From Escherichia coli (GTDB lineage Bacteria > Pseudomonadota > Gammaproteobacteria > Enterobacterales > Enterobacteriaceae): a DNA stretch of 64,000 bases. The notes below the pieces were generated by a model that did no database searches, was not told the origin of the DNA, and worked only from the letters and a program-made list of their open reading frames with translations. Below, in pieces: positions 10,187 to 52,336 of the stretch; the first letter of the stretch is position 1; each line of letters starts with the position of its first letter. The translations under genes were made by a program, and so were the position numbers. The stretch lies in assembly GCF_024502345.1 (NCBI RefSeq), contig NZ_JALDNN010000001.1; one strand, written 5' to 3'.

Positions 10187-10203
10187 TCAGATATCCTCCC
10201 TGC

Positions 10204-14926: not shown

Positions 14927-15187
14927 CGTTAATAAGGGTCAGCCCATCCTGCACAAAGCCTGAGCCGCTGACCGTACTCGCTACGGCACGACTGATGACA
15001 GGGCGTGTCAGCATGCTGTCGTCATTTCAGCTACCTGGCACTAACCCTTTGTTAATTCTCCTGTTTACTGAAAGATGAATTTTACTTTTTCTTTTCCGCC
15101 ATTACGGGGGATGGACATAACGTGTCCCTCCCCGCCCGCATAATAACCGCATGAAATATCAACCTATTTATCGCACACGGAGCGTCC

Positions 15188-16179: not shown

Positions 16180-16191
16180 GGAAATCTGAAC

Positions 16192-16503: not shown

Positions 16504-16549
16504 CACGGCTGCCCCCCAACAACATTTTTGACTGAGAAGGAAAAATACC

Positions 16550-17020: not shown

Positions 17021-17068
17021 CCCGGCGCATCCCCGGTTTACAGCAAAATCAATCAAGGACAATACGAT

Positions 17069-17581: not shown

Positions 17582-17663
17582 CGCAGCTCTCCTCTTATTA
17601 TCCGGCCGGGGCATTCCTGTGTGCCCCAGATTCATCCGGATCCCCCCTCTGAGATTTGACCCA

Positions 17664-17885
17664 ATGACATTACTGAAAATCGTGCTCAACACCCTGCGTC
17701 AGGTGCTGACGTGGTGCGCCAGCAGCCGGGCGCAGCAGTTTGTGGAAGACCACTTCCGCGAAGAAGGCTATGACGAAGACAGTATTTACATCGCCAGACA
17801 GGCGGCAACCCTGCTCGCAGGTGCCTTAATCACAGCGCTCATGGAACAGATACTGCAGCTTATTGCCACACACTTAACCCACTGA
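17664..17885 (+). CDS. hypothetical protein (73 aa)
   Basis: Start taken at the Met that does not overlap the upstream gene (track ORF 17448..17885 is a longer alternative). Confidence 0.4.
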
Positions 17886-17940
17886 TGCCCTGCTCACTGA
17901 GCGGGGCATTTTGTTTTATGCCATTCATCAGGAACTGAAT

Positions 17941-18174
17941 ATGCAAGTCACTGACGATACGTCGTTACCGCCAGGGCAATTCACCCGCCGACAGGCTGAA
18001 GCCGTGGTCACGCTTTACCACAACGTCACTATAGAAGATGACCAGGGTACGCACTTTCGGCTGGTTATTCGCGACAGCGAGGGGACGTTAATCTGGCGGG
18101 CCTGGAATTTTGAAGCCAGTGCCGGGGAATGGCTTAACCGCTATCTGCTCAGCCACGGGATCCCCAAACACTGA
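17941..18174 (+). CDS. DUF905-family protein (YkfF-like)
   Basis: …[38 protein letters not shown]… ; paralog of 44225..44458. Confidence 0.75.
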
Positions 18175-18206
18175 CACACCACAGCTTAACCCAATAGCGA
18201 CCACAC

Positions 18207-18247
18207 AAAAAAGCCATGCTCCCACAGGAGCATGGCTGTTTTGTTTA
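18207..18247 (+). terminator. putative rho-independent terminator
   Basis: Stem AAGCCATGCTCC / GGAGCATGGCT followed by GTTTTGTTT. Confidence 0.55.
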
Positions 18248-18277
18248 TGCCGTTAAATCAACAATAAGGAATTTACC

Positions 18278-18673
18278 ATGAGACTAGCCAGCCGCTTTGG
18301 ACGGACAAACCAGATCCGTCGCGATCGTCCGTTAACCCGCGAAGAACTGATGCAGGTCGTTCCCAGCGTATTCAGTGCAGATCGCCACGGTTCCAGGAGC
18401 GAAAAATACGCTTACATACCCACCATTACTCTGCTCGAAAATCTTCAACGCGAAGGCTTTGAACCCTTCTTCGCCTGCCAGTCACGCGTACGCGACCCTG
18501 ACCGCCGGGAGCACACCAAACATCTGCTGCGCCATCTTTGTAGACCGGAGAATGATGTTTGGATGAAAGCGAGTTTTGGTACCCTCATCATTGAGGGTAC
18601 CAACAGCAAAATACTCGGCGAATGCTATTGTCTAAGCACAGCGCCAAGCCTTAGCGGCACGAATAGTTGTTAA
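18278..18673 (+). pseudogene. DUF932-family (YafZ-like) gene, 3'-truncated after about 86 codons
   Basis: First 86 aa colinear with the intact paralog at 44557..45375; similarity ends near 18537, where unrelated sequence and the RM cassette begin. Confidence 0.75.
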
Positions 18674-21414: not shown

Positions 21415-21435
21415 TATAATTATCCTTATTAACCG

Positions 21436-23142
21436 TTAATCTTGCGCTGCATCGTCATCGGCAGACGCATCGTCAGTTAGGTTTGCCACGTTTAACGAAT
21501 AATCGTCCTGACCAAATTGGCACTTGTCTAAAATGGCTTTTGGCAGTTTTTTCAAGGTTAAATTGGTAAAACGACCTGGCTCGCAGCGAAATGCACCACA
21601 CATAACCAGTAAAGTTCGGTCACTGCCAACTTCTTCTGACAGCGCTTCTAATTTATCTACCGATAAGCTTTGTGTGGTGACATAAATATGATCCGTCTCG
21701 GTTGAATAACCGTGATCCCACCAATTCACTTCCGATGGCGCATAGGTAAAACCTTCCAGCTTACAAACGGCTTCGGCGAGCATTTCTGGGTTGTACTCTT
21801 TATTGATCACTTCCAAGCCAAACTTATCTTTCACAATTAAGGTCGGGGCAAGTTTGTAATAGCGGAAGCCACCGCCACCTTGCCAGTTTACAGACTTAGA
21901 AATACCACCTTGATCTTCGCCATCAATCACTTTTTGCAAGCGCGGGATAATATGGGTATGACAATGATCACCTAGCTCGACCGAGATCCAACGTCTTTTC
22001 ATCTTGTGAGCTACAGCAGCAGTAGTTCCCGAACCACCGAATGAATCAAAGACTAAATCGCCTTCTCGCGTACACATTTCGAAAATCCGCTTCAAAAGCG
22101 CTTCGGGTTTTTTTCCATTTTTGAAACTAACGCCGCCTTCATTTGCTATTCCATTCCAACTAATGTCAGTCCAAACATCAGTTATTAGTTCAGCAGGTTG
22201 CATCTCACCGTCAATTTCCAAAAGCCTATTGGAGTAAAAGACCATTTGCCTACCATTTGCGATATAAAAGCCTTCGACATCCTCATTTGGATGTACATAA
22301 ACCTTATCCCTATCTTTCTTTGACTTCTCGATAGTTTCTTTTCTCTTTATTTTAGCACCACCACCAATTGCAACGGATTGAAATACACGTTCTGCATTAT
22401 CAATTGCGAATTGTGCTAATTCATCATCAAATGTATCAGGCAGTTTTTTCTTGGCTTCTTTTGTATCTTTATAGCCATTGGCCTTTGCAAACGCATCGGC
22501 AATACCGCACCACGTCCAACTTTTATAATGGTCATCTGGGTTTAATAGATATTTGTTATATCCCGTATCATATCCTTTAGGTATATAGATTTTGTTAAGC
22601 GGTTTCTGGGTGCGATCTTTTGCGTATACAAGCAAAAAGTTTACTGTGGAGAAAACTGTGGCCCCTGTTGCCTTAAAGCCTGAAGGGTCATTTGTGGTCA
22701 TCGATATGGTATTTAACTGATTTGCACGACCAAAAATCTCGTCCATCAAAACTTTTAAATAAGCCATTTCGCAGTCATCTAAGTGAACGAATATTACTCC
22801 ATCATCACTTAGTAGATTACGAATTATTTCTAACCTATCCCTCATTAAGCCCAGCCAAATGGAATGCTCCAGACCATCATCATAGTGCTCAAAAGCACTT
22901 CCGGTATTGAATGGTGGGTCTATGTAAACACACTTCACTTTGCCTGCATATTCTTGCTCTAGCGCCTTCAATGCCAATAAGTTATCGCCAAAAATCAGTT
23001 TATTATCAAAAATATCGTTTTCGGTCACTTTTTGGCTGGCGTGATAAGACTTGCTCGGGTCTTCTAACAAAATGCGCGGCTCTAACTTTTTGCGCTCGTT
23101 TTTGCCTATCCAGGTCAGTTCTAATTTGGTTTTGCTCATCAT
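21436..23142 (-). CDS. Type III R-M Mod subunit (N6-adenine/N4-cytosine class DNA methyltransferase)
   Basis: Motif IV DPPFN and SAM motif FDSFGGSGTT; mod-res gene order with a 21-bp gap. Confidence 0.85.
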   Translation of the reverse strand: MMSKTKLELTWIGKNERKKLEPRILLEDPSKSYHASQKVTENDIFDNKLIFGDNLLALKALEQEYAGKVKCVYIDPPFNTGSAFEHYDDGLEHSIWLGLMRDRLEIIRNLLSDDGVIFVHLDDCEMAYLKVLMDEIFGRANQLNTISMTTNDPSGFKATGATVFSTVNFLLVYAKDRTQKPLNKIYIPKGYDTGYNKYLLNPDDHYKSWTWCGIADAFAKANGYKDTKEAKKKLPDTFDDELAQFAIDNAERVFQSVAIGGGAKIKRKETIEKSKKDRDKVYVHPNEDVEGFYIANGRQMVFYSNRLLEIDGEMQPAELITDVWTDISWNGIANEGGVSFKNGKKPEALLKRIFEMCTREGDLVFDSFGGSGTTAAVAHKMKRRWISVELGDHCHTHIIPRLQKVIDGEDQGGISKSVNWQGGGGFRYYKLAPTLIVKDKFGLEVINKEYNPEMLAEAVCKLEGFTYAPSEVNWWDHGYSTETDHIYVTTQSLSVDKLEALSEEVGSDRTLLVMCGAFRCEPGRFTNLTLKKLPKAILDKCQFGQDDYSLNVANLTDDASADDDAAQD

Positions 23143-23196
23143 TTCTGTGCTCTTATCTTGTGTTCGTTACTTAGCGTTATTATTCTACAGCAATCG

Positions 23197-25062
23197 CTAC
23201 GCAGGTTGTGCTTGGCGATTACTCGCTTGGGTGTTTTGCCCTTGTCGGCGTTGCGCTTGCTCGGCTAAGTAACTGAATAAATTCTGGTTGTGTGGGTCGT
23301 TCGCTTGAAGGCGTTCTTGTTTTGCTACAACTGCCGGGCTTTCTGCCAAGTTTAAATGGCTAATCCACACCGTTTGCATTAAACGTGCGGTATCGCCCAA
23401 GCGTTTGAAGTATGCGTGCGGCGCACTGCCTAATACTAATGCCGTAAAACTATCAAAAAATTGCTGACGAAGTTCATCAAAAGCGTGGCTGATTAATCTT
23501 TTAAATGCCGCTTGCTCGGTAATCTCAGGAGCCGTAATAGCGCCTTCAAACTGCGCCATTAATAGCGTGGTTATGCAGTAAGTAAAATGTCGATATACCA
23601 GTTTTTCTGGGCTTGGACTACTGCGCTCTGCGTTTGTACATAAGACTTGAATAGCCAGATAGCAGTTCACCGCGTTAATGGCGACGGCCCCCTGTAAATC
23701 TGTACTAAAAACGGCTTGGTACTCGGCACTTTCTTGGTTAGTGAATTTGCTTGGCTCTACTTTTAGCTGATAAGGCACGCGTACATCACCGTGCATACAG
23801 GCCAATGCTTTGGCCAAGGTGTCGATAGTAATGCTGCGAATACCCGCTGCTGCGCTTTGTTGTGGGCGGTAGAGATATTCAACACCAAACATTTTCATCT
23901 CTTGGCGCAAGCGTTCTTGGGTATCATCCAGCGCGGCAAAGTTGGCTAAATCGACCGGGTTTTGCAGGTTACGCGCTTTGGTTACTTGTTTGTGAAATGC
24001 ATCGTTACCCGTGTTGATAATGGTTACCATCACTTGAGCTTGGCTGATGTCTGCATTTGGGTTTTCACGCATAAACTGTGCAGCACTAGCAATGGTTTGT
24101 GCACCGTTAACGACGGACAGGCCATCGACTGCAACATGCTTGCTACCTGTGTGGCCTCTAATATTCCCTTTTGGTTTTACTGCATTGCCAACCAGAGTAA
24201 TGCCATTGTTAAGATAAATAAAATTTTCCGGCTCATGTAAAAGGGTGTCTTTAATCGCCCTATTTACCCCACGTCTGCCAGCACCAATAAAATAGCGAAT
24301 ATTTTTCTCGTAAAGTTTACGGTCATGAGTAGTGTGCAAGGCAATTAAATCGGTTAGCTTGGCGATACCAAATACGACTTTTCGTGGTTGTTCTTGCACT
24401 CGGAACTTATATACAGCGACACGCTCGTTTACCGTATCAACCGCATGTTCACTGCGAAGAGCCTGCTCAACATCGGTGGCGGTGTATTCTTGATATTCAG
24501 GTGCGATTTGCTCTTCACCTTCATCAATCAGCTCTTGGATCGCTGGTTGTAGGTAGTTTTGTGCTTGTATGGTAATGCCATTACCTGTGTATGCGACAAG
24601 CAGTTGAATTCTTTCGCACTCGTCTAATGCGGCTTCAATATTTGCTTGAAGGTTTTGAACATTTTGATTAAAGCGGTGAAATTGCTTGTTTAAAAGTAAC
24701 TTTACACCCTCAATAAAAGCCTGTGCTTCGCCCAATTGGAATTGCGCATCTTCCTTCATTTTTGACTGTACTAAGTACAGAGTCTGATCAGCTTCGTGAT
24801 AATAAATTGCATCAATACCATGGTCTTCATAGTCGTCCACCACAGCTTTTGCTGCGGTCACTACGTCTAAATCGAATTTTTGCTGTAGTACGAATGCGCT
24901 AAAAGCCCTGGAAATTTGCTTTTTAGGTTTATCTTCTCGCCCACCTTGCCCAAGCAATGGCGGTAAATGCGGCACAAAACGCTGCTGTAGCAGTTCTTTT
25001 AATAGGGTAAGAAATTGTGGTTGTAATGCTGCCAAGTGAGTTGTCCTTATTTTTATTGCCAA
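23197..25062 (-). CDS. large abortive-infection-like protein, tentatively AIPR family (621 aa)
   Basis: Size and context (between an Abi_2 gene and an RM system) and a remembered VVNGAQT-like block; family assignment from memory only. Start overlaps the upstream stop by 10 nt. Confidence 0.4.
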
Positions 25063-25994
25063 ATTGGCCGCGCTTGCCAGTCGGCTGGAAAGCCCATGCG
25101 GTCAATGTCTATTTGGTGATGATTTATCAATTGGATGAGTCGTTGCTTCCAGTGATGTTCACCACTGATCACATCCATGAGGTAGCCCAACATCACCAAG
25201 GTGTTATAAATTTTTCGTAAACGCCGGTCGCTATCGGGCAGGTTTTGCAAGCTTTGAATCAGTGCCGGTTCACCATGGCGTGGCAGTACCGTGGTTTTAA
25301 TAAAATCACGGTTCCATAGCCTAGAATGATGGGCACTTAAATTGCGCACTAGCGACAAATGCTCACAGAATGAGGTAAGAGTTTTTTCATCTAGGCCGTA
25401 GCTTTTGCTTATTACCTGGCGGTCGGCACGCAGCTTGATATTGCTGTACCAACAGGAAAGTTGCCCCATGGTTAACAGCTCAACACAGGCCCAAATAGGG
25501 GGTAGTGGCTCTTGATATTTTTGCGTAAGGTGCTTGATGAACTCTTCACGACTGCACTTTACCTCACCCGTGAGTTTGCCAAGGCTACTGGCGTATTCTA
25601 ATAAATCACCAAAGAGCTCTGGTTTTAAATGAGGGTGCGCGGTTTGGTATTTTTGGCTCAACTGATACGCAATTTGTGTGCGTAATGACACCTCAAAACG
25701 CTCGATGGCATCTAGCACTAACAAACGTAGTTCACGGTCGAAAACATATAGGCTTAGGACTTGGTCAAACTGAGTACCTGTGATAAACGTATGACTGGCA
25801 TGATCTTGCTCATAGGGCAAACAATAAGCCGCAAAACGATAGTAGTTCAGCTGTGCTAAGTAAAACTCAGCTTTCGGGACATCACTGATCACTAGGCCAC
25901 GTTGTTGCAACAAGCGTACTTGATCGCTAAAGCTTGTAGGGGGCTTGGTAAAAGCGACTTTAGGGACTGGTTTGCGGCTCATTTGACCTCCCAT
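25053..25994 (-). CDS. Abi_2-family (AbiD/AbiF-like) abortive infection protein
   Basis: 313 aa with N-terminal …[17 protein letters not shown]… signature, which I recall as typical of Abi_2 proteins. Confidence 0.55.
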
Positions 25995-26139
25995 GCAACA
26001 GAAGATCGAATTTTGCGGGCCCCAGAAACGAGTAACCCCTCACAGGGCGCTGATCTGACGGGTAGCGGGAGGGGTGTTGTTGCAGTGATCATAGCCCCAA
26101 ACTGAAAAAAGTCAATGCTGGCGTTGAAATTGATTGTCA

Positions 26140-29034
26140 TCATTGAACCGTCCACCCAATGGTAAATAGGGTCTCTTGGCTGGTTTTTTTATTCAGTTTG
26201 CCTTCTAAGCTTTCAATCAGCTGTTCGCGCTTTTCGTCCACTTCATCTTGTTTATCAAACAGTTCACGGCGGCTTTTATTGCGCTGACTTTCTAACTGGC
26301 GCTGCTGTTTTTGCAGGGCAAGTTTCTCTTCCAGGGTTGGAGCTATTTTGGCTTCGCGGCGTACTTGCTTGATTTGCTTATCAAGCTCTTTTATAGATTG
26401 TTCAAGCCCTTCTTTTAAATCGTCTGCCCAAGAATCTAACTTGTTTACCTCTTGCTCGAAGAAGCTGAGATTACGATCGTTAACTTGCTTTTCGATGCCT
26501 AGTCTCGACTGCTGTAACGCATGCTGCAGCGCATATTGATAGCCAGGATATAAGGCGGCAAGTTCTTGCTCACTTACTTCACTTTGCACACAGGCACTAA
26601 GCTGCATCAGCTTTTGCACGACTTCACTTGGTAGCGGATGACCATGTTCATCTTGCGCGGCGAACAATAAATGGTCTTCGCTACGCTCCAATGATTCGAC
26701 ACTAAATTTTTGTAGGCTTAGTACACCTGACAAACCCACTAAGGGTTCTAGCATACTGATTTTTGTTTGGTGGTTGCTGTAATCAAAAATTACGCTGGCA
26801 ATGGGTAATTCACGTTGAAGCGCGTTGCTGATCACCCATTCACCCAGCGGGTGGGTGATACGATACACATGGGCATTGGCTAGTTTACCGGTTTCAATAC
26901 TGCCGCTTTGCTGTCCTCGGCGTACAAGTTGGTAGCTACCTGTAGGAGCCTGATTGATACTTTGATTAAGCGTAAAACTATGGTTGCTTGGGTCAATGTC
27001 TGCGATAGCTGCAAGTTCATGCGTACTGAGTTGCCAGAACCAACGGCCTACTTTATCGAGGCGTTGCTGCGCGGCATCTAGCTGAATTTTGAGTAAGTCG
27101 TGAATATCTTCATCGAAATTTTCCAGCAGCAGTTGCTGGGTCTCGCGCATTTTTTGGTTGATGTCGGCTTCTAGCTCTTTTTGCAATTGATCAAAAGCTG
27201 CTTCTATTTCCGCCGGTTGCCGACAAGTCTCGTATATATTTTGGATGCGTTTTTCAAAATCAATACCAGATTCAATGCTGCCTAGCACATCGTCCGATGC
27301 ACCAAACACGCCATCGAACAGATGGAATTTTTCAGTCAGTAACTCTAAAACACGCTGATCGGCTTTGTTGGCTTCGTTGAGGAAGTTGATCACCACAACA
27401 TCAAATTGCTGCCCATAGCGGTGACAACGGCCAATACGTTGCTCTACTCGTTGTGGGTTCCATGGTAAGTCATAGTTAATAAGTAACGAACAGAACTGTA
27501 AGTTAACCCCTTCTGCAGCCGCTTCGGTTGCGATCATAACTTCGGCATGATGGCGGAAGTAATCAATTAGGGCAGTACGGCGGTCAATTTGCGGTGAACC
27601 ACTCACCTTATCACTACCTTGGTTTTCAGCTAACCACTGCTGATAAACTTTGGTTGCTTCTGGATGGTTATTGCTGCCACTAAAGGTGACTAATTTATCA
27701 GCAAAGCCATTCGCCTCGAGGAAACGAGCTAGGTATTCTTGCGTGCGCTTCGATTCGGTAAAAATAATGACTTTACGTGGCGCCCCCATTTCCTCCATTT
27801 TGGCAAACCCTTGATTAAGCGCCGTTAGCAAGGCTTGGGTTTTACTGTCGGTGGTAATGGATTTAGCCTGCTCGATATAATGCTCAAGCTCGGCTATTTC
27901 AGCATTGAGTAACTCAAAGTCAATATCACTCTCAGGGGTATTGCTTTGTGTTTCTTCTACATACTCGCTGTACTCTTCTCCTAAATCATCACTCTCAACA
28001 AGCTCACTGATAATATCGAGGTCCGATTTAGCCTGTACTTTCAAGTCAACCAATCGGCGCTTTATAGTTTCGAGTGTGTTGAGCACTGCGTGCGAACTAG
28101 ATGCTAATAGCTTTCTCAGTATAAGGCCGGTTAAATGACGTTGGCTCTTGGGTAGTGCATAGCTCTCGTCCTTTTCCAATAAGGCACTAATACTTTCGTA
28201 AAGTGCCATCTCAGCATTAGAGGGTGTAAACGGTACGGTGAGTGTTTGACGTTGGGTATAGCGGACGTATTCGAGTACATCTTTGCGCAAGGTACGCTGA
28301 ATAAACCCGGTAAGTCGTTTCTTTAAATGCCCTAGCGCACTTTCGTTATTGACAAAGTGTTGTTTGAAGCTTCGCTCATCGCCGAAGATTTGATCGTCGA
28401 TAATGGTTGAAAGTCCATACAATTCCATGAGCGAGTTTTGTAAGGGTGTTGCAGTAAGTAATAGCTTTTTACTGCCATCTAATGCGCGGCGTAGCGTTTG
28501 ACCCATTTTATTGCTGCTACGATGTGCATTACGTAGCTTGTGCGCTTCGTCGATGACGACAATATCCCATGGCTCTAGCATTAGCTGCGTTTCCATTCTC
28601 GCAGCATAGTGATAGGACATAATAGAAACGCAGTGATTAGCTAGCGGGTTAGTTTGACCATTGTTAACACTAATGCGCCACGTTTTTGCATCAAGCACTT
28701 GCGTTGGTAAATTAAACTTATCGCCCAATTCCTGCGCCCACTGGCGTCGCAATGACGCCGGGCAGATGATCAATATGCGGCGTTTACGCTCTGCCCAATA
28801 CTGTGACAGTACTAAGCCTGCTTCAATAGTTTTCCCTAAGCCCACTTCATCAGCGAGTACAACACCTTTGCTTAACGGGTTGTTGAGCGCAAAAAGTGCC
28901 GCATGAATTTGGTGCGGATTGAGATCAACACTGGCATCAAAAAGAGATTGAGACAATTTATCAACGCCATTTTCAGCGTGGCGAATGGTTAATTCCTGCG
29001 CAAAGTATTTTGCTTGATAATCAGTTATTACCAT
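26140..29034 (-). CDS. SNF2-family helicase (about 965 aa) with C-terminal coiled-coil-rich region
   Basis: Motifs I LADEVGLGKT, II VIDEAHKLRN, III LLLTATPLQN, VI QRIGRCHRYGQ. Start set at MVITDYQ (29034) so that overlap with the upstream HTH gene is 14 nt rather than 95. Confidence 0.85.
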   Translation of the reverse strand: MVITDYQAKYFAQELTIRHAENGVDKLSQSLFDASVDLNPHQIHAALFALNNPLSKGVVLADEVGLGKTIEAGLVLSQYWAERKRRILIICPASLRRQWAQELGDKFNLPTQVLDAKTWRISVNNGQTNPLANHCVSIMSYHYAARMETQLMLEPWDIVVIDEAHKLRNAHRSSNKMGQTLRRALDGSKKLLLTATPLQNSLMELYGLSTIIDDQIFGDERSFKQHFVNNESALGHLKKRLTGFIQRTLRKDVLEYVRYTQRQTLTVPFTPSNAEMALYESISALLEKDESYALPKSQRHLTGLILRKLLASSSHAVLNTLETIKRRLVDLKVQAKSDLDIISELVESDDLGEEYSEYVEETQSNTPESDIDFELLNAEIAELEHYIEQAKSITTDSKTQALLTALNQGFAKMEEMGAPRKVIIFTESKRTQEYLARFLEANGFADKLVTFSGSNNHPEATKVYQQWLAENQGSDKVSGSPQIDRRTALIDYFRHHAEVMIATEAAAEGVNLQFCSLLINYDLPWNPQRVEQRIGRCHRYGQQFDVVVINFLNEANKADQRVLELLTEKFHLFDGVFGASDDVLGSIESGIDFEKRIQNIYETCRQPAEIEAAFDQLQKELEADINQKMRETQQLLLENFDEDIHDLLKIQLDAAQQRLDKVGRWFWQLSTHELAAIADIDPSNHSFTLNQSINQAPTGSYQLVRRGQQSGSIETGKLANAHVYRITHPLGEWVISNALQRELPIASVIFDYSNHQTKISMLEPLVGLSGVLSLQKFSVESLERSEDHLLFAAQDEHGHPLPSEVVQKLMQLSACVQSEVSEQELAALYPGYQYALQHALQQSRLGIEKQVNDRNLSFFEQEVNKLDSWADDLKEGLEQSIKELDKQIKQVRREAKIAPTLEEKLALQKQQRQLESQRNKSRRELFDKQDEVDEKREQLIESLEGKLNKKTSQETLFTIGWTVQ

Positions 29035-29227
29035 CCAACACCCCTTTTCCTTGAGCTGCTTGCGTACTGATCCATTCTTCAAGATCGGATTGTTTAAAGC
29101 GCCAAGCATTGCCAACTTTAAAAGCAGGAATTTTATGTACCGCTGCTAGACGGTAAACAGTTCTCTCATTTACCTTCAAATACTCAGCTACTTCTTTAAT
29201 TGTCAGAACGGTATCAGTCATTTTCAC
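29021..29227 (-). CDS. small helix-turn-helix DNA-binding protein (excisionase/MerR-like HTH)
   Basis: LTIKEVAEYLKVNERTVYRLAAVHKIPAFKVGNAWRFKQSDLEEWI is a typical HTH_17-type pattern; overlaps the SNF2 start. Confidence 0.7.
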   Translation of the reverse strand: MKMTDTVLTIKEVAEYLKVNERTVYRLAAVHKIPAFKVGNAWRFKQSDLEEWISTQAAQGKGVLDGNN

Positions 29228-42538: not shown

Positions 42539-43423
42539 ATGTCATTCAGCCATTCTTCCCTCTCCGCACAAGTGAAATCATATCTGACGTTTCTTCCTGA
42601 AGAAATTCGCCAGAAAATCCTTGAACATCTCCACGGTGTTATTCATTACGAGCCCGTAATTGGCATTATGGGTAAATCCGGCACCGGCAAAAGCAGTCTG
42701 TGTAATGCCATTTTTCAGTCCCGTATCTGCGCCACGCATCCCCTGAACGGCTGCACCCGCCAGGCTCATCGTCTTACCCTGCAGCTCGGTGAACGCAGAA
42801 TGACGCTGGTCGATATGCCCGGCATTGGTGAGACACCGCAGCATGATCAGGAATACCGGGAGCTTTACCGTCAGTTACTGCCGGAACTGGATCTGATTAT
42901 CTGGATCCTGCGGGCTGATGAACGTGCGTATGCTGCTGATATTGCCATGCATCAGTTTTTACTGAATGAAGGTGCAGATCCCTCGCGTTTTCTGTTTGTT
43001 CTCAGCCATGCCGATCGCGTGTTTCCTGCTGAAGAATGGAACGACACAGAAAAATGCCCGTCCCGTCAGCAGGCGCTCTCACTGGCGACGGTGACAGCCC
43101 GGGTGGCAACCCTGTTCCCTTCATCATTTCCGGTACTCTCCGTTGCCGCACCTGTCGGCTGGAACCTTCCGGCGTTTGTGTCGCTGATGATCCACGCACT
43201 GCCACCACAGGCAACCAGTGCGGTTTATTCACATATCCGGGGGGAAAACCGCTCTGAACAGGCCCGGAAACACGCACAACAGACTTTTGGTGAAACCATC
43301 GGGAAAAGTTTTGACGACGCCGTTGCCCGTTTCAGTTTTCCGGCCTGGATGTTACAGCTTCTGCGCAAAACCCGGGACCGCATTATCCACCTGCTGGTCA
43401 CGCTGTGGGATCACCTGTTCTGA
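42539..43423 (+). CDS. YeeP/YfjP/YkfA-family GTPase
   Basis: G1 motif GIMGKSGTGKSSL, G3 DMPGIGE. Confidence 0.8.
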   Translation: MSFSHSSLSAQVKSYLTFLPEEIRQKILEHLHGVIHYEPVIGIMGKSGTGKSSLCNAIFQSRICATHPLNGCTRQAHRLTLQLGERRMTLVDMPGIGETPQHDQEYRELYRQLLPELDLIIWILRADERAYAADIAMHQFLLNEGADPSRFLFVLSHADRVFPAEEWNDTEKCPSRQQALSLATVTARVATLFPSSFPVLSVAAPVGWNLPAFVSLMIHALPPQATSAVYSHIRGENRSEQARKHAQQTFGETIGKSFDDAVARFSFPAWMLQLLRKTRDRIIHLLVTLWDHLF

Positions 43424-43541
43424 ACGCCCCGGAGTCCCCCGTGGCAACCGTATACCTTTACACGACAACGGATTACGGTAACCACTGCCGTATACCGTCT
43501 GTCATTATCAATAACACGCTCTTTAATTTCAGAGGTCAGTC

Positions 43542-44219
43542 ATGAATACCAGAATTCTTTTTCCCCTGCTGTTCACTGTGGCATCATTCTCCGCCTCCGC
43601 CGGCAACTGGGCTGTCAAAAACGGCTGGTGTCAGACCATGACGGAAGATGGTCAGGCGCTGGTAATGCTGAAAAATGGCACGATTGGTATTACCGGCCTG
43701 ATGCAGGGATGCCCGAATAGCGTACAGACGCTCCTGGGCAACCGTATCAGTATTAACGGTAACCTGATCCCCACATCACAAATGTGTAATCAGCAGACAG
43801 GATTCAGGGCTGTTGAGGTGGAAGTCGGACAGGCGCCGGAAATGGTCAAAAAAGCCGTTCACTCCATAGCAGAGCGTGATGTGTCAGTTTTACAGGCATT
43901 TGGTGTACGAATGGAATTCACCCGCGGTGATATGCTGAAGGTCTGTCCGAAATTTGTCACATCACTTGCCGGTTTTTCCCCGAAACAGACACCCGCCATT
44001 AATAAAGATTCCGTCCTGCAGGCTGCCCGGCAGGCATACGCCCGGGAATATGACGAGGAAACAACAGAAACCGCTGATTTTGGCTCTTACGAAGTAAAAG
44101 GCAATAAGGTTGAGTTTGAAGTATTCAATCCTGAAGACCGTGCGTACGACAAAGTGACCGTCACGGTTGGTGCTGACGGTAATGCCACCGGCGCCAGCGT
44201 TGAATTTATCGGAAAATAG
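43542..44219 (+). CDS. secreted hypothetical protein
   Basis: Signal peptide [20 protein letters not shown]. Confidence 0.55.
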
Positions 44220-44224
44220 CCGGT

Positions 44225-44458
44225 ATGTCGGACTGCCACCCTGTTTTATTGCCCGAAGGCCCTTTCTCACGCGAACAGGCGATGGCTGTCACAACAGCTT
44301 ACCACAATGTGCTTATTGAAGATGATCAGGGAACGCATTTCCGGCTGGTTATCCGCAATGCTGAAGGGCAGCTACGCTGGCGGTGCTGGAATTTTGAACC
44401 TGATGCCGGAAAACAGCTAAATCCGTATCTCGCCAGTGAGGGAATTCTCAGGCAATAA
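44225..44458 (+). CDS. DUF905-family protein (YkfF-like)
   Basis: …[38 protein letters not shown]… ; paralog of 17941..18174. Confidence 0.8.
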
Positions 44459-44480
44459 ACGTCTTCATTTCATCCATCAG

Positions 44481-44512
44481 GCCACGTCTTCTCCGGGAGA
44501 CGTGGCTTTTTC
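44481..44512 (+). terminator. putative rho-independent terminator
   Basis: Stem GCCACGTCT / AGACGTGGC followed by TTTTT. Confidence 0.6.
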
Positions 44513-44556
44513 ATTTATTACACCAGTAAATCTTAATCACCAATAAGGAGCAAATC

Positions 44557-45375
44557 ATGCGATTAGCAAGTCGTTTTGGTTATGCGAACCAGATACGCCG
44601 TGACCGCCCCTTAACTCGCGAAGAACTGATGCAGGTCGTCCCCAGCGTATTCGGGGAAAATAAGCACACATCCAGAAGCGAGAACTATACCTGGATCCCC
44701 ACCATCACCGTGCTGGAAAGCCTGCAGCGGGAAGGCTTTCAGCCCTTCTTTGCCTGCCAGACCCGCGTACGTGACCCGGGCCGCCGGGGGTATACCAAAC
44801 ACATGCTGCGTCTGCGCCATGACGGGGAGATAAACGGACAACATGTCCCTGAAATCATCCTACTGAACTCCCATGACGGTACCTCCAGCTACCAGATGCT
44901 GCCGGGTTACTTCAGGTTCGTCTGCCAGAACGGCTGCGTCTGTGGTCAGTCTCTGGGGGAAGTGCGTGTTCCACACCGGGGAAATGTGGTGGACAGAGTC
45001 ATTGAAGGGGCTTACGAGGTGGTGGGCGTGTTTGACCGGATTGAGGAAAAGCGTGATGCCATGCAGTCGCTGGTCCTGCCGCCACCGGCACGCCAGGCGC
45101 TGGCACAGGCGGCGCTGACTTACCGTTATGGTGACGAACATCAGCCCGTCACCACCGCTGACATTCTGACACCACGACGCAGGGAGGATTACGGTAAGGA
45201 CCTGTGGAGTGCTTATCAGACCATCCAGGAGAATATGCTGAAAGGCGGGATTTCCGGGCGCAGCGCAAAAGGAAAACGTATCCATACCCGGGCCATTCAC
45301 AGCATCGGTACCGACATTAAGCTCAATCGCGCATTGTGGGTGATGGCAGAAACGCTGCTGGAGAGCATGCGCTGA
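44557..45375 (+). CDS. DUF932-family protein (YafZ-like), intact copy
   Basis: 272 aa; N-terminal 86 aa nearly identical to the truncated 18278 copy. Confidence 0.8.
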   Translation: MRLASRFGYANQIRRDRPLTREELMQVVPSVFGENKHTSRSENYTWIPTITVLESLQREGFQPFFACQTRVRDPGRRGYTKHMLRLRHDGEINGQHVPEIILLNSHDGTSSYQMLPGYFRFVCQNGCVCGQSLGEVRVPHRGNVVDRVIEGAYEVVGVFDRIEEKRDAMQSLVLPPPARQALAQAALTYRYGDEHQPVTTADILTPRRREDYGKDLWSAYQTIQENMLKGGISGRSAKGKRIHTRAIHSIGTDIKLNRALWVMAETLLESMR

Positions 45376-45466
45376 TGCTGTTTCCCTGAAAGTACAGCCC
45401 TGACTCACGGCTGTACCAGTCTCCGGGCATTCTTCCATTCATTTACTTTTTATAAGGAATAACCTC

Positions 45467-45952
45467 ATGACAACCGTTTCGCATAATTCCACCACACCTT
45501 CTGTTTCCGTAACCGCTGCATCAGGGAATAACCCACCTCAGCTGGTTGCCACTCCCGTCCCTGATGAACAGTGCATCAGCTTCTGGCCGCAGCACTTTGG
45601 CCTCATTCCACAGTGGGTGACCCTGGAGCCCCGTATCTTCGGCTGGATGGACCGTCTGTGTGAAGACTACTGCGGTGGTATCTGGAATCTGTACACCCTG
45701 AACAACGGTGGGGCATTTATGGCACCCGAACCGGATGACGATGATGACGAAACATGGGTACTGTTCAATGCCATGAACGGTAACCGCGCTGAAATGAGTC
45801 CGGAAGCCGCCGGCATTGCTGCCTGTCTGATGACGTACAGTCATCATGCCTGTCGAACGGAGTGTTATGCCATGACGGTCCACTATTACCGGCTGCGGGA
45901 TTACGCCCTACAGCATCCGGAATGCAGCGCCATTATGCGCATCATCGACTGA
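45467..45952 (+). CDS. antirestriction protein (YfjX/YafX/KlcA-like)
   Basis: …FWPQHFGLIPQWVTLEPRIFGWMDRLCEDYCGGIWNLYTLNNGGAFMAP… is typical of the antirestriction family. Confidence 0.8.
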   Translation: MTTVSHNSTTPSVSVTAASGNNPPQLVATPVPDEQCISFWPQHFGLIPQWVTLEPRIFGWMDRLCEDYCGGIWNLYTLNNGGAFMAPEPDDDDDETWVLFNAMNGNRAEMSPEAAGIAACLMTYSHHACRTECYAMTVHYYRLRDYALQHPECSAIMRIID

Positions 45953-46444
45953 ATGGAGACAGGGACAATGCAGCAGCTTTCCTTTCTGCCCGGAGAGATG
46001 ACGCCCGGCGAGCGCAGTCTCATTCTGCGGGCCCTGAAAACCCTGGACCGCCATCTTCATGAACCCGGCGTGGCCTTCACCTCCACCCGTGCGGCACGGG
46101 AATGGCTGATTCTGAACATGGCGGGACTGGAGCGTGAAGAATTCCGGGTGCTGTATCTGAATAACCAGAATCAGCTGATTGCCGGTGAGACCCTCTTCAC
46201 AGGCACCATCAACCGCACGGAAGTCCATCCCCGGGAAGTGATTAAACGCGCCCTGTATCACAATGCCGCAGCCGTGGTGCTGGCACACAATCACCCGTCA
46301 GGTGAAGTCACACCCAGTAAGGCTGACCGCCTTATTACGGAACGTCTGGTACAGGCACTGGCCCTGGTGGATATCCGGGTGCCGGACCATCTGATAATCG
46401 GTGGCAGCCAGGTTTTCTCCTTTGCTGAACACGGTCTGCTTTAA
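45953..46444 (+). CDS. RadC-like JAB-domain protein (YeeS/YfjY/YkfG-like)
   Basis: JAMM motif …HNHPSGEVTPSKAD… . Confidence 0.85.
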   Translation: METGTMQQLSFLPGEMTPGERSLILRALKTLDRHLHEPGVAFTSTRAAREWLILNMAGLEREEFRVLYLNNQNQLIAGETLFTGTINRTEVHPREVIKRALYHNAAAVVLAHNHPSGEVTPSKADRLITERLVQALALVDIRVPDHLIIGGSQVFSFAEHGLL

Positions 46445-46512
46445 CCCGTCACCATCACAACCACATCACACTTGTTTTCACTTTTATCTTCTGTCTTCAG
46501 AGGTATCCCATC

Positions 46513-46734
46513 ATGAAAATTATCACCCGTGGTGAAGCCATGCGTATTCACCAACAGAATCCTGCATCCCGTCTTTTTCCGTTCTGTACCGGTAAGTACC
46601 GCTGGCACGGCAGTGCTGAAACGTATACCGGTCGTGAAGTGCAGGATATTCCCGGTGTGCTGGCCGTGTTTGCTGAACGCCGTAAGGACAGTTTTGGCCC
46701 GTATGTCCGGTTGATGAGCGTCACTCTGAACTGA
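46513..46734 (+). CDS. DUF987-family protein (YeeT/YkfH-like)
   Basis: MKIITRGEAMRIHQQNPASRLFPFCTGKYRWHGSAETYTGREVQDIPGVLAVFAERR… . Confidence 0.8.
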   Translation: MKIITRGEAMRIHQQNPASRLFPFCTGKYRWHGSAETYTGREVQDIPGVLAVFAERRKDSFGPYVRLMSVTLN

Positions 46735-46752
46735 GTCAGAAAGGGGATTCTG

Positions 46753-47784
46753 ATGAGCAGCATTATCACCACCACAGTGTATACGCTGGATGAACTTTCC
46801 TGCCCTTCTGCACGGGAAAAAGCCCGCGACTGGTACCGTGTGCACCATTCTGACAGCAACTGGTATGAAAACGTGTACGAGGACTTCAGGGCGGTCTGTG
46901 GCATTTTCGGAATTGACCTCCGCCAGCGCGTTTTCCGGCTCAGCAACGGCAGGTTTATGGAAGAGCCGTGCATCTGGTTCAGCGGATTCTGCAGCCAGGG
47001 GGACGGAGCCTGTTTTGAAGGACGCTGGCACTGGCAGTCAGCAACAGCCAGGAGGCTCCGGGAGTATGCCACACAGGACCATGAACTCCATCGTATCGCG
47101 GATGCCCTGCAGGCGGTGCAGAAACGTAACTTCTGGCAACTGCAGGCTGAAATCCACCACCGGGGACGTTACTGCCATCCGTACAGCATGGATATCACTG
47201 TTACCCGGAACAGTCCGACTGGTCAGGCTATGACAGCCGATGCGGAAGCCGCTGTCAGCGAAGCCCTGCGCGACCTGGCCTTCTGGTTGTACCGTCAGCT
47301 GGAAAACGAGTACGACAGGCTGACCTCTGATGCCGCTGTTGATGAGGCCCTTCTCATCAACGAATACACCTTCACCGAAGCCGGTCTGCGCGCCGGCTTA
47401 CCTGAGGACTTTATCGTGTCAGACAAACTCCATGAGACAAATTATCCCGACGACCATAACGACCGCCTCTGGTGGGGACTGCTCTGCACCGTGACGCCCT
47501 GTTTCGGGGCACGTCTGGTGCAGGAGGGTAACCGGTTGCATTACCTTGTCGACCGCGCCGGCATCAGAGGCCTGTTCAGCGATGCAGATGCGTACCACCT
47601 GGACCAGGCCTTTCCGCTGCTGATGAAACAACTGGAGCTCATGCTCACCAGCGGTGAACTGAATCCCCGCCATCAGCATACCGTGACACTGTATGCGAAG
47701 GGGCTGACCTGTGAAGCCGACACCCTCGGCTCCTGTGGTTACGTTTATCTGGCTGTTTATCCGACGCCCGAAACGAAAAAGTAA
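46753..47784 (+). CDS. 343-codon ORF: unknown 222-aa N-terminal region fused in frame to a CbeA/YeeU-type antitoxin domain (C-terminal about 122 aa)
   Basis: C-terminal part …DDHNDRLWWGLLCTVTPCFGARLVQEGNRLHYLVDRAGIRGLFSDADAYHLDQAFPLLMKQLELMLTSGELNPRHQHTVTLYAKGLTCEADTLGSCGYVYLAVYPTPE matches CbeA. A GTG at 47418 sits where K-12 cbeA has its ATG, so a 122-aa product from 47418 is also possible. Confidence 0.6.
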   Translation: MSSIITTTVYTLDELSCPSAREKARDWYRVHHSDSNWYENVYEDFRAVCGIFGIDLRQRVFRLSNGRFMEEPCIWFSGFCSQGDGACFEGRWHWQSATARRLREYATQDHELHRIADALQAVQKRNFWQLQAEIHHRGRYCHPYSMDITVTRNSPTGQAMTADAEAAVSEALRDLAFWLYRQLENEYDRLTSDAAVDEALLINEYTFTEAGLRAGLPEDFIVSDKLHETNYPDDHNDRLWWGLLCTVTPCFGARLVQEGNRLHYLVDRAGIRGLFSDADAYHLDQAFPLLMKQLELMLTSGELNPRHQHTVTLYAKGLTCEADTLGSCGYVYLAVYPTPETKK

Positions 47785-47873
47785 CTCTCCAGAATAACCT
47801 TCTACTCCGGCCTGGTGCTTTCACCACGCCACTTTTCCATTTTTCATCTCTGCATATCAGGAAAATCTTCAGT

Positions 47874-48251
47874 ATGAAAACATTACCTGTATTACCCGGG
47901 CAGGCGGCCAGTTCACGCCCGTCTCCGGTTGAAATCTGGCAGACACTGCTCACCCGACTGCTGGATCAGCACTACGGCCTTACGCTGAATGACACACCGT
48001 TCGCTGATGAACGTGTGATTGAGCAGCATATTGAGGCAGGCATTTCACTGTGCGATGCGGTGAACTTTCTCGTTGAAAAATACGCACTGGTACGTACCGA
48101 CCAGCCGGGATTCAGCGCCTGTACCCGTTCTCAGTTAATAAACAGTATTGATATCCTCCGGGCACGCCGGGCAACCGGCCTGATGACACGCGACAACTAC
48201 AGAACGGTAAATAACATTACCCTGGGTAAACATCCGGGGGCGAAACAATGA
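47874..48251 (+). CDS. cbtA: CbtA/YeeV-family type IV toxin
   Basis: MKTLPVLPGQAASSRPSPVEIWQTLLTRLLDQHYGLTLNDTPFADERVIEQHIEAGISLCDAVNFLVEKY… closely matches CbtA-family toxins. Confidence 0.85.
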   Translation: MKTLPVLPGQAASSRPSPVEIWQTLLTRLLDQHYGLTLNDTPFADERVIEQHIEAGISLCDAVNFLVEKYALVRTDQPGFSACTRSQLINSIDILRARRATGLMTRDNYRTVNNITLGKHPGAKQ

Positions 48252-48670
48252 AACTGGCCCTGACGCTGGAAGCCGACAGCATTAATGCGCAGGCGCTGAA
48301 CATGGGGCGCATTGTCGTTGACGTCGATGGTATTGAGCTCGCTGAACTGATTAACAAAGTCGCTGAAAACGGTTATTCACTCCGCGTGGTGGATGAACGT
48401 GACGCTACCGAAACACCGGCGACTTCTGCCAGCCCTCATCAGTTGCCGGAAGACAATACAGTGATACAGAGCGTGATGCCATTAACCACTGAAACAGCGC
48501 TGGATATCCTCATTGCGTGGCTGCAGGACAATATTGACTGCGAATCGGAAATTATCTTTGACAACAATGAGGACAAAACGGATTCGGCAGCACTGTTGCC
48601 CTGTATTGAACAGGCCAGGGAGGATATCCGTACCCTGCGCCAACTGCAGCTTCTGTACCAGAACCAGTGA
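48248..48670 (+). CDS. YeeW-like (DUF5983) protein
   Basis: Position just downstream of cbtA with 4-nt overlap; acidic 140-aa protein. Confidence 0.6.
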   Translation: MKLALTLEADSINAQALNMGRIVVDVDGIELAELINKVAENGYSLRVVDERDATETPATSASPHQLPEDNTVIQSVMPLTTETALDILIAWLQDNIDCESEIIFDNNEDKTDSAALLPCIEQAREDIRTLRQLQLLYQNQ

Positions 48671-48754
48671 GTCTTACTCACCAGACTTCATTCCACTGAC
48701 GCCAGCCTGAACAGGGCTGGCGTTTTCATTTATCTGCAAAAAGGAATATCGATT

Positions 48755-49597
48755 ATGTCTGAAATCACAGCCCCCCGTCCGGAAGTGGTCAACGGGCATA
48801 CGGACGTTATCTGTTCAACCAGTATCCGCCACATTCTGGCTGTACGAAAGAGTACGCTGCTGCAAATCGACACACTTACCCGGCAACTGGCAGAAATCTC
48901 AGCAATGACAGAAAGTATTGGCGGTAAAACCGCACTGGACTGGGCGATGAAACAGGATTTTCGCTGTGGTTGCTGGCTGATGGAAAAACCTGAAACGGCA
49001 ATGAAAGCCATCACCCGCAATCTCGATCGCGAAATCTGGCGTGACCTGATGCAACGTTCCGGGATGCTGTCATTAATGGATGCGCAGGCCCGTGAGACAT
49101 GGTACCGGTCACTGGAGCACGATAATTTTCCGGAAATCAGTGAAGCGAACATTCTGAGCACATTTGAACAACTACACCAGAATAAGGATGAGGTGTTTGA
49201 GCGAGGGGTGATCAACGTCTTCAGGGGACTGAACTGGAATTACAAAACCAATTGCCCCTGCAAATTTGGCAGTAAAATTATCGTCAACAACCTAGTGAGG
49301 TGGGACCGGTGGGGGTTTCATCTTATCACCGGGCAACAGACTGACCGACTCGTCGACCTGGAAAGAATGCTACATCTGTTCAGCGGCAAACCGATCCCCG
49401 ACAACCGGGAAAACATCACTATTCGTCTGGATGGTCACATCCAGTCCGTTCAGGGTAAAGAGCGCTATGAAGACGAGATGTTCATCATTAAATACTTTAA
49501 GAAGGGATCTGCACACATCACTTTCAAAAGGCTGGAACTGATTGACAGAATTAACGATATAATAGCCAGGTACTTTCCTTCTGTACTCTCAGCCTGA
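48755..49597 (+). CDS. DUF4942-family protein
   Basis: 280-aa ORF in the position usual for DUF4942 genes at the distal end of CP4-like islands; assignment from memory. Confidence 0.6.
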   Translation: MSEITAPRPEVVNGHTDVICSTSIRHILAVRKSTLLQIDTLTRQLAEISAMTESIGGKTALDWAMKQDFRCGCWLMEKPETAMKAITRNLDREIWRDLMQRSGMLSLMDAQARETWYRSLEHDNFPEISEANILSTFEQLHQNKDEVFERGVINVFRGLNWNYKTNCPCKFGSKIIVNNLVRWDRWGFHLITGQQTDRLVDLERMLHLFSGKPIPDNRENITIRLDGHIQSVQGKERYEDEMFIIKYFKKGSAHITFKRLELIDRINDIIARYFPSVLSA

Positions 49598-49707
49598 TCC
49601 CAAGTGTGATTCCCTTTCGATATCAAAAGGGACTGCGGGTATAATTGAGGGTACATTTTTAATCAAACCAAGTAAATTATATTAATATCAATATGATAAA
49701 AGAAATT

Positions 49708-49729
49708 TTCGATTCCGAGTCCGGCACCA
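49708..49729 (+). repeat. tRNA-Phe 3'-end remnant (island attR-like repeat)
   Basis: TTCGATTCCGAGTCCGGCACCA matches the last 22-23 nt of E. coli tRNA-Phe (one G fewer); upstream sequence is not tRNA-like. Confidence 0.7.
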
Positions 49730-49738
49730 AATTCATAT

Positions 49739-49766
49739 AAACGGACCTCCACGGAGGTCCGTTTTT
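49739..49766 (+). terminator. rho-independent terminator (tRNA-locus type)
   Basis: Stem AAACGGACCT / AGGTCCGTTT with the T-run GTTTTT. Confidence 0.65.
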
Positions 49767-49876
49767 CGTTTCAGGACGCCACGATTTAAGCGTTCTGCCG
49801 CCAAATCAATTCTACCGAACTCAACCAGATTCTCCCCACATCACCAGCAATTTGCGGGCATGGTAATGACTCCAAC

Positions 49877-50380
49877 TTATTGATAGTGTTTTATGTTCAG
49901 ATAATGCCCGATGACTTTGTCATGCAGCTCCACCGATTTTGAGAACGACAGCGACTTCCGTCCCAGCCGTGCCAGGTGCTGCCTCAGATTCAGGTTATGC
50001 CGCTCAATTCGCTGCGTATATCGCTTGCTGATTACGTGCAGCTTTCCCTTCAGGCGGGATTCATACAGCGGCCAGCCATCCGTCATCCATATCACCACGT
50101 CAAAGGGTGACAGCAGGCTCATAAGACGCCCCAGCGTCGCCATAGTGCGTTCACCGAATACGTGCGCAACAACCGTCTTCCGGAGCCTGTCATACGCGTA
50201 AAACAGCCAGCGCTGGCGCGATTTAGCCCCGACGTATCCCCACTGTTCGTCCATTTCCGCGCAGACGATGACGTCACTGCCCGGCTGTATGCGCGAGGTT
50301 ACCGACTGCGGCCTGAGTTTTTTAAATGGCGGAAAATCGTGTTGAGGCCAACGCCCATAATGCGGGCGGTTGCCCGGCAT
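49877..50380 (-). CDS. insB: IS1 InsB
   Basis: [16 protein letters not shown]…[15 protein letters not shown], near-identical to IS1 InsB. Confidence 0.95.
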
Positions 50381-50574
50381 CCAACGCCATTCATGGCCAT
50401 ATCAATGATTTTCTGGTGCGTACCGGGTTGAGAAGCGGTGTAAGTGAACTGCAGTTGCCATGTTTTACGGCAGTGAGAGCAGAGATAGCGCTGATGTCCG
50501 GCGGTGCTTTTGCCGTTACGCACCACCCCGTCAGTAGCTGAACAGGAGGGACAGCTGATAGAAACAGAAGCCAC
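50299..50574 (-). CDS. insA: IS1 InsA
   Basis: [48 protein letters not shown]… . Confidence 0.95.
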
Positions 50575-50704
50575 TGGAGCACCTCAAAAACACCATCATA
50601 CACTAAATCAGTAAGTTGGCAGCATCACCAATCATTCTTACTCCCTTTGAATTACCCGCCTCATCAGAGATAATGCTTAAGAAATTTGTCACACAAGGAA
50701 GCTG

Positions 50705-52336
50705 ATGAGACATTCATTGCCCTACCGCATGTTACGCAAACGTCCGATGAAATTGAGTACCACTGTGATCTTAATGGTCAGCGCGGTACTGTTCTCGGTG
50801 CTATTGGTGGTGCATCTGATTTACTTCTCGCAAATCAGTGATATGACGCGAGACGGGCTAGCCAACAAGGCACTGGCAGTGGCGCGTACTCTCGCCGACT
50901 CGCCGGAAATCCGTCAGGGCTTGCAGAAAAAACCGCAGGAGAGTGGCATCCAGGCCATCGCGGAAGCCGTGCGCAAACGCAACGATCTGCTGTTTATTGT
51001 CGTTACCGATATGCAAAGTCTTCGCTACTCGCATCCTGAAGCCCAGCGTATTGGTCAGCCATTTAAAGGTGATGACATCCTTAAAGCGCTGAATGGCGAA
51101 GAAAATGTCGCTATCAATCGCGGTTTTCTGGCGCAAGCTTTACGCGTATTTACTCCCATCTACGATGAAAATCATAAACAAATTGGCGTGGTGGCGATCG
51201 GCCTTGAGTTAAGCCGCGTGACCCAACAGATCAATGACAGTCGCTGGAGCATTATCTGGTCAGTATTATTTGGCATGCTGGTCGGACTGATTGGCACCTG
51301 CATTCTGGTTAAAGTACTGAAAAAAATCCTTTTCGGCCTGGAACCCTACGAAATCTCCACGCTGTTTGAGCAACGCCAGGCCATGTTGCAGTCTATCAAA
51401 GAAGGCGTCGTTGCCGTGGACGATCGCGGCGAGGTCACGCTGATCAACGATGCCGCACAAGAATTGCTGAATTACCGTAAGTCGCAGGACGATGAGAAAC
51501 TGTCGACGCTCAGCCACTCATGGTCACAGGTGGTAGATGTCTCGGAAGTGTTACGCGACGGTACGCCGCGCCGCGACGAAGAGATTACGATTAAAGACCG
51601 GCTATTACTGATCAACACCGTTCCGGTGCGCAGTAATGGCGTTATCATCGGTGCCATTTCAACCTTCAGGGACAAAACTGAAGTTCGTAAACTGATGCAG
51701 CGACTCGACGGTCTGGTCAACTATGCTGATGCACTTCGTGAACGATCCCACGAATTTATGAATAAATTGCATGTGATTCTCGGATTATTGCATCTGAAGA
51801 GTTATAAGCAGTTGGAAGATTACATTCTCAAAACAGCCAATAACTATCAGGAAGAGATTGGCTCTATGCTGGGTAAGATCAAATCTCCGGTTATCGCTGG
51901 TTTTTTAATCAGCAAGATTAACCGCGCGACCGATTTAGGCCATACGCTGATTTTAAACAGTGAAAGCCAGCTGCCAGACAGCGGCAGTGAGGACCAGGTC
52001 GCGACGCTGATTACCACATTGGGAAATCTGATAGAAAACGCGCTGGAAGCATTAGGGCCGGAACCCGGTGGCGAAATTAGCGTAACATTGCACTACCGTC
52101 ACGGCTGGCTGCACTGCGAAGTTAACGATGATGGACCGGGGATCGCACCCGACAAAATCGATCACATTTTTGACAAAGGTGTCTCGACAAAAGGAAGCGA
52201 GCGAGGCGTCGGTTTAGCACTTGTCAAACAACAGGTAGAAAATCTCGGCGGCAGCATCGCCGTGGAATCGGAACCCGGGATTTTCACACAATTTTTTGTC
52301 CAGATACCCTGGGACGGGGAGAGGTCGAACAGATGA
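50705..52336 (+). CDS. dcuS: C4-dicarboxylate sensor histidine kinase DcuS
   Basis: 543 aa; sequence and synteny with dcuR-dcuB-fumB as in E. coli. Confidence 0.95.
   Translation: MRHSLPYRMLRKRPMKLSTTVILMVSAVLFSVLLVVHLIYFSQISDMTRDGLANKALAVARTLADSPEIRQGLQKKPQESGIQAIAEAVRKRNDLLFIVVTDMQSLRYSHPEAQRIGQPFKGDDILKALNGEENVAINRGFLAQALRVFTPIYDENHKQIGVVAIGLELSRVTQQINDSRWSIIWSVLFGMLVGLIGTCILVKVLKKILFGLEPYEISTLFEQRQAMLQSIKEGVVAVDDRGEVTLINDAAQELLNYRKSQDDEKLSTLSHSWSQVVDVSEVLRDGTPRRDEEITIKDRLLLINTVPVRSNGVIIGAISTFRDKTEVRKLMQRLDGLVNYADALRERSHEFMNKLHVILGLLHLKSYKQLEDYILKTANNYQEEIGSMLGKIKSPVIAGFLISKINRATDLGHTLILNSESQLPDSGSEDQVATLITTLGNLIENALEALGPEPGGEISVTLHYRHGWLHCEVNDDGPGIAPDKIDHIFDKGVSTKGSERGVGLALVKQQVENLGGSIAVESEPGIFTQFFVQIPWDGERSNR

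Follow-up and report, generated by a model that had tools for sequence, protein, structure and literature searches.

A 22-nt tRNA-Phe 3'-end repeat as the probable attR of a mosaic island at pheU in an Escherichia coli chromosome

The closest described systems to the locus presented here are the GI-pheV and GI-pheU islands of Escherichia coli, which carry an intP4-type integrase and share with this locus the attR string, a right-end module of yee and DUF4942 genes, and overall architecture. Examples include the GI-pheV islands of APEC O1, H10407, 55989, and 12009, PAI V536, the she PAI/SHI-1, and SHI-3 at pheU. The string TTCGATTCCGAGTCCGG-CACCA, identical to the core described below, is given as attR for numerous GI-pheV islands (PMC11537424, Table 1), and a 22-bp direct repeat, shifted relative to K-12, has been reported at pheU and pheV insertions (PMC6174562). 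Islands integrated at tRNA genes are also known to accrete in tandem, with repeats lengthened in the 3' direction (PMC4891358). Furthermore, loss of the cad genes is a classical pathoadaptive change in Shigella and EIEC, where silencing of cad has been convergent (PMC5723341).

Here we analyze a 64,000-nt stretch of an E. coli contig (NZ_JALDNN010000001.1, assembly GCF_024502345.1), hereafter the window, in which a copy of the tRNA-Phe 3' end separates about 50 kb of mosaic DNA from core chromosome. We consider it very probable that this 22-mer is the attR core of an island integrated at pheU by a P4-type tyrosine integrase, and we infer its integrase-mediated origin because the same P arm-core junction sits in relatives with a complete pheU-integrase-island layout, such as strain M159-1. 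The features around the junction are as follows.

1 to 49707: mosaic island DNA up to the scar, with its left end beyond the window
42539 to 49597, forward strand: conserved right-end gene module, open reading frames in the gene order annotated in strains L73 and M159-1
49598 to 49707, forward strand: non-coding right arm (P arm) of the island, from the DUF4942 stop codon to the core
49708 to 49729, forward strand: putative attR core, corresponding to tRNA-Phe positions 54-76 (from the T-loop to CCA) with a G lost from the GGG run
49730 to 49861, forward strand: pheU downstream flank, remnant of the left (P') arm of an older decayed island, ending at IS1
49739 to 49764, forward strand: intrinsic-terminator hairpin and T run, 11 pairs of which 6 are G-C, a loop of 4, and a T-rich tail
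49862 to 50629, reverse strand: complete IS1 (768 bp), without target-site duplication
50705 to 52336, forward strand: dcuS, where the core chromosome resumes

The letters at 49708-49729 read TTCGATTCCGAGTCCGGCACCA. In K-12, the 3' terminus of both pheU and pheV is the 23-nt TTCGATTCCGAGTCCGGGCACCA, made up of the T-loop TTCGATT, the 3' T-stem strand CCGAG, the 3' acceptor strand TCCGGGC, and a final ACCA. Alignment of the two gives 17 exact nucleotides, a 1-nt gap, and 5 exact nucleotides (22/23); the initial annotation had taken the repeat as a 22-nt match to the tRNA-Phe 3' end, which is right in substance, although it is not an exact 22-nt substring. The core lies in direct orientation, as expected of an attR copy of the 3'-terminal ~19-23 nt of tRNA-Phe, and its pattern occurs once across the window, with no second copy of the repeat within it. 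Given that the match is short, one might ask whether A+T-rich intergenic DNA could resemble a tRNA 3' end by chance. We rejected this explanation and give it essentially no weight, since none of 100 dinucleotide shuffles matched the core pattern, even with up to three mismatches allowed, and the adjoining flank matches the region downstream of pheU almost perfectly (see below).

The rest of the tRNA is missing at the repeat. ARAGORN found no tRNA gene in the entire window, and a permissive Rfam scan of 49400-49900 returned only noise-level matches and no tRNA, so that the core comprises positions 54-76 without the detectable cloverleaf of a tRNA gene or pseudogene. Nor does the window contain a P4-type integrase (best tblastn E = 0.31). 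Both results agree with the initial annotation, which had placed the intact tRNA-Phe and the integrase outside the window. They would also fit a truncated tRNA pseudogene, in which the 5' two-thirds of pheU were lost through an IS-mediated or other deletion, and the region is indeed rich in insertion sequences, with an IS1-linked deletion only 132 bp away. However, the P arm-core junction is base for base that of genomes with an intact pheU or pheV and an integrase at the far end of the island, it occurs in roughly one in three complete E. coli genomes, and the match starts at the first base of the T-loop, as in published attR sequences (PMC11537424). We therefore rejected a truncated pseudogene as highly improbable and retain the attR reading.

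Relatives with the complete layout show where the missing parts would lie. In M159-1, the order is dsbD, dicD, tRNA-Phe (pheU), a 420-aa tyrosine integrase, ~30 kb of accessory genes, the 22-mer, yjdQ', and cadC-cadB-cadA, and the accessory region ends on the right with GTPase-DUF905-DUF932-antirestriction-RadC-DUF987-YeeU-CbtA-DUF5983-DUF957-DUF4942. Strain L73 has the same right junction as the window and M159-1, and PSS-11 carries a complete island at pheV with the intact tRNA and a P4-type integrase at the other end. Similarly, the island DNA of the window ends in the conserved right-end module, as expected of an attR. Its first genes encode a GTPase, a hypothetical protein, DUF905, DUF932, an antirestriction protein, RadC, and DUF987; its last encode a YeeU/CbeA antitoxin (a 343-aa open reading frame), the CbtA toxin, DUF5983, and DUF4942 (48755-49597). 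Pfam assignments for the module were taken from loci carrying an identical DUF4942 protein. The 343-aa open reading frame (46753-47784) has the YeeU/CbeA antitoxin domain at its end; its counterpart elsewhere is a pair of separate genes for a 214-aa hypothetical protein and a 122-aa antitoxin, and the same long frame is called in some pheV islands (loci L005 and L007). The window junction thus compares well with known pheU and pheV junctions, being the same as in M159-1 and L73 and sharing its core with GI-pheV attR sites. Altogether, the empty site in K-12, M159-1, PSS-11, and the literature agree with the original description of the repeat as a scar at the distal end of a pheU/pheV island.

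The DNA to the right of the core refines the locus. Positions 49730-49861 are identical at 131 of 132 sites to the K-12 DNA directly 3' of pheU, hairpin included, and K-12 pheU adjoins this flank directly, so the island DNA left of the core is absent from the empty site. The DNA 3' of pheV differs from the window flank (CTAATTCTTAAGAACCCGCC...). Since the flank matches K-12 pheU downstream DNA while that of pheV differs, the integration locus, judged from flank identity, is pheU and not pheV, which narrows the initial assignment to either tRNA-Phe gene. The scar fixes the right boundary of the island to the base (49729/49730), and a known boundary and locus aid annotation of both the 50 kb of mosaic DNA to the left and the loss of cad genes to the right. 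The terminator hairpin starts ten bases downstream of the core, folds at -18.4 kcal/mol (z = -4.75 against shuffles), and is identical to the one 3' of pheU in K-12. A tRNA-type terminator, as first annotated, is present in the form of a hairpin and T run, but it is island derived and not an ancestral chromosomal terminator.

This last point follows from attL sites in relatives. In PSS-11, pheV is followed by AAATTCATATCAACGGACCTCCACGGAGGTCCGTTTTT..., the "pheU-type" hairpin, whereas the empty pheV of K-12 has a different terminator downstream, so the island delivers the terminator-bearing arm as its P' arm. The core and flank of the window share ~91% identity with the arm that the island brings to attL, 3' of pheU in M159-1 and of pheV in PSS-11, and for the K-12 tRNA and arm the alignment covers 209 nt at 94% identity. 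The K-12 arm then leads into yjdQ', in which integrase codons 1-11 are fused to codons ~359-420; the first 11 codons read IALTDVKCRAA in K-12 yjdQ', compared with MALTDAKIRAA. In coordinates, the 133-bp P' arm with its terminator and the following yjdQ' occupy K-12 4362191-4362550 (locus L002), 3' of pheU. Because the K-12 arm runs into an internally deleted integrase, we conclude from these alignments that island-free strains, K-12 among them, retain 3' of pheU the decayed left end of an older island. Accordingly, the window junction has the structure P arm-core-P' arm and is a product of tandem accretion; its repeat extends beyond the tRNA end because an older member of the same island family supplies its left arm on the right-hand side. 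Strain VTB97420v (locus L035, 4061-8091) provides a further example of such accretion at a tRNA-Phe site: there, a different element with a terminator, a tyrosine integrase, and an Arm-DNA-binding protein of its own comes immediately after the same one-G-deleted core.

Under the attR reading, the locus would have formed in the following way. The attP of the element would carry a copy of the tRNA-Phe 3' end, and recombination with the tRNA gene (attB) would create an attL consisting of the intact tRNA followed by the element's terminator and integrase gene. At the other end, attR would place the partial tRNA 3' end beside the DNA that lay downstream of the tRNA before integration, which here would be the terminator and 132 bp of the left arm of the older decayed island, as after K-12 pheU. 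In a later step, IS1 would have inserted into this flank, and ~10.7 kb including cadCBA would have been lost.

We asked whether the G missing from the core is peculiar to this strain. We compared 13 attR copies that share the same 60-nt P arm, namely those of the window, L73, M159-1, and ten loci with an identical DUF4942 protein; eight are at pheV and five at pheU, and they diverge immediately 3' of CACCA. The one-G deletion is present in 12 of the 13. The remaining copy, at pheU (L013), has a perfect 23-mer despite the same P arm, so the deletion is not universal. Six further strains with visibly diverged P arms (86 to 98% identity to a 100-nt query that ran from the P arm through the core into the flank) were fetched and aligned, since BLAST identities alone could not sort one-G-deleted from GGG cores when confounded by P-arm divergence; all six have the one-G-deleted core. 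The right flank in VTB97420v is of a third kind and represents the left end of another element that carries an integrase; GGCACCA is the sole sequence common to the three kinds of right flank. At attL in relatives, the tRNA is intact and keeps the chromosomal GGG.

From these alignments, the missing G is probably a fixed feature of the right arm in this island family rather than a chance local event. With moderate confidence, we favor a one-G-deleted attP core native to the family with the yee/DUF4942 right-end module, combined with a crossover within the last ~7 nt (GGCACCA) and not in the T-loop. A crossover 3' of the G run is suggested because the deletion stays with the right arm beside three different right flanks, and such an exchange would leave the attL tRNA intact with its GGG. 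A crossover near the tRNA 3' end would fit the "asymmetric 3'-end" sublocation class that Williams (2002) is reported to have defined. Alternatively, the missing G could be a decay mutation that occurred in place after integration, once the displaced tRNA 3' end no longer had a function, with crossover in the T-loop, and that arose independently or spread by homologous recombination. The perfect 23-mer beside an identical P arm in L013 would be explained in this way, slippage in a G run is a plausible recurrent mutation, and the identity block starts exactly at the T-loop. However, we regard decay in place as rather doubtful given that the deletion accompanies diverged P arms and flanks with nothing but GGCACCA in common, and that exchange in the T-loop would give the element a perfect core each time it excised, with the deletion staying behind in the chromosome. 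Furthermore, other published attR types vary in the 5' part of the repeat and keep its last 11 nt (PMC11537424). If the native one-G-deleted core is the correct explanation, an inbuilt mismatch between attL and attR would be an inherited and possibly stabilizing feature of the family, as an imperfect attL/attR pair is expected to lower excision and stabilize the island.

The P arm itself is widespread. The 60 nt of it immediately left of the core (49648-49707) do not vary among the pheU and pheV attR sites of the 13 loci, and 1,778 of 5,426 complete E. coli genomes carry P arm and core together; in other strains, diverged P arms still precede the same core. Searches of GTDB species representatives for P arm and core, with or without the G, gave no matches, a result that is uninformative given one genome per species. 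The motif TGCGGGTATAATTG at 49634-49647, 61 nt left of the core, is a candidate integrase arm site: its general form, TG[C/T]GGGTATAATTG, has one copy in the P arm and one each in the attL P' arms of M159-1 and PSS-11. Outside the window, this form lies at 1930-1943 of locus L003 and at 1135-1148 of locus L017 (reverse strand), and it also overlaps a promoter-like -10 hexamer. Similar paired motifs have been described close to both ends of selC islands (PMC6174562).

The 49.7 kb of island DNA in the window lacks an attL, and the left end of the island in this strain may have been rearranged or lost. The cargo upstream of the right-end module contains the following features.

1 to 18.5 kb: heavy-metal/accessory module carrying a group II intron reverse transcriptase and remnants of IS3, IS30, and IS256
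1443 to 1877: IS3-family transposase fragment
2000 to 3523, reverse strand: group II intron reverse transcriptase/maturase
4674 to 5825: IS30
18676 to 29115 (18.7 to 29.1 kb), reverse strand: defence cluster
18676 to 21414, reverse strand: type III restriction enzyme
21436 to 23142, reverse strand: type III methyltransferase
23197 to 25062, reverse strand: AbiU/AIPR-like protein
25053 to 25994, reverse strand: AbiD
26140 to 29115, reverse strand: DrmD-like SNF2 helicase, with no other recognisable DISARM genes
29 to 42 kb: IS remnants and small island genes

Positions 1-18533 match segments of plasmid pMB18183_1 (E. coli strain 44) and of the EH09-18-41 pheV island at 99.9 to 100% identity. 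This left-third module is associated with heavy-metal efflux and has Citrobacter-like protein accessions, and the MFS protein at its left end points to a heavy-metal module widespread in large enterobacterial genomes and also present on a plasmid. The mobile elements at 1443-5825 are nested, an arrangement that recurs in several E. coli chromosomes and plasmids. Similarity to EH09-18-41 stops inside that island's own DUF905/DUF932 right-end module, a pattern that suggests the fusion of two islands in the window. G+C content varies between 0.40 and 0.57 along the island and gives no boundary signal, because the island is a mosaic.

To the right of the flank, a complete IS1 adjoins the 132-bp pheU remnant on one side and sequence 75 bp upstream of dcuS on the other. 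Its flanks (TGCGGGCAT / IS1 / AATCATTCT) lack a 9-bp target duplication and are non-contiguous in the reference, lying 10,682 bp apart in M159-1; a complete IS1 with non-contiguous flanks and no duplication is the configuration of an IS1-associated adjacent deletion. Missing relative to M159-1 are ~10.7 kb with yjdQ', cadC, cadB, cadA, dtpC, lysU, ghoT, ghoS, yjdJ, and yjdI. From dcuS on, the genes (dcuS, dcuR, dcuB, fumB ... mel, adiA) are collinear with the E. coli core. The exact IS1 junction of the window was found in none of the 5,426 complete E. coli genomes, and the junction of IS1 with the pheU flank had no matches in GTDB species representatives, where one genome per species makes the result uninformative. 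Other deletions running from pheU through IS1 to the dcuS side occur in 12 of the 5,426 genomes, and the two viewed in detail differ in their end points. Since independent deletions with other end points exist, IS1-linked loss of cad beside pheU is recurrent.

We compared the locus with each of the known systems. As in the cad "black hole" of Shigella and EIEC, also seen in some other E. coli, the window lacks cadC, cadB, and cadA and has an IS element at the deletion junction; it differs in that its exact junction is unmatched among the complete E. coli genomes. Composite islands at the asn-tDNA of Klebsiella pneumoniae, to the extent that Pavlovic et al. 2004 are cited in PMC4891358, likewise have a repeat that extends 3' past the tRNA end. 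Compared with those islands, the older element here is reduced to a ~130-bp arm and the internally deleted integrase yjdQ'; it is found in nearly all E. coli and is shortened further by IS1 in the window. Differences from the GI-pheV islands are the location at pheU, a right flank that IS1 truncates at 132 bp, and the loss of the cad region. The window also differs from GI-pheV and GI-pheU islands generally in having no attL or integrase within it, and its cargo is a particular mosaic in which a heavy-metal module is combined with a cluster of type III restriction-modification, Abi, and SNF2 defence genes. The scar is a feature of an already known kind, and earlier publications cover the repeat, its one-base gap, and its role. 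To these systems the locus makes modest additions: a flank formed by tandem accretion, comparative evidence for an element-borne gap and for the position of the crossover, whose mapping to the last few tRNA bases is a small refinement, and an adjacent IS1-linked cad deletion.
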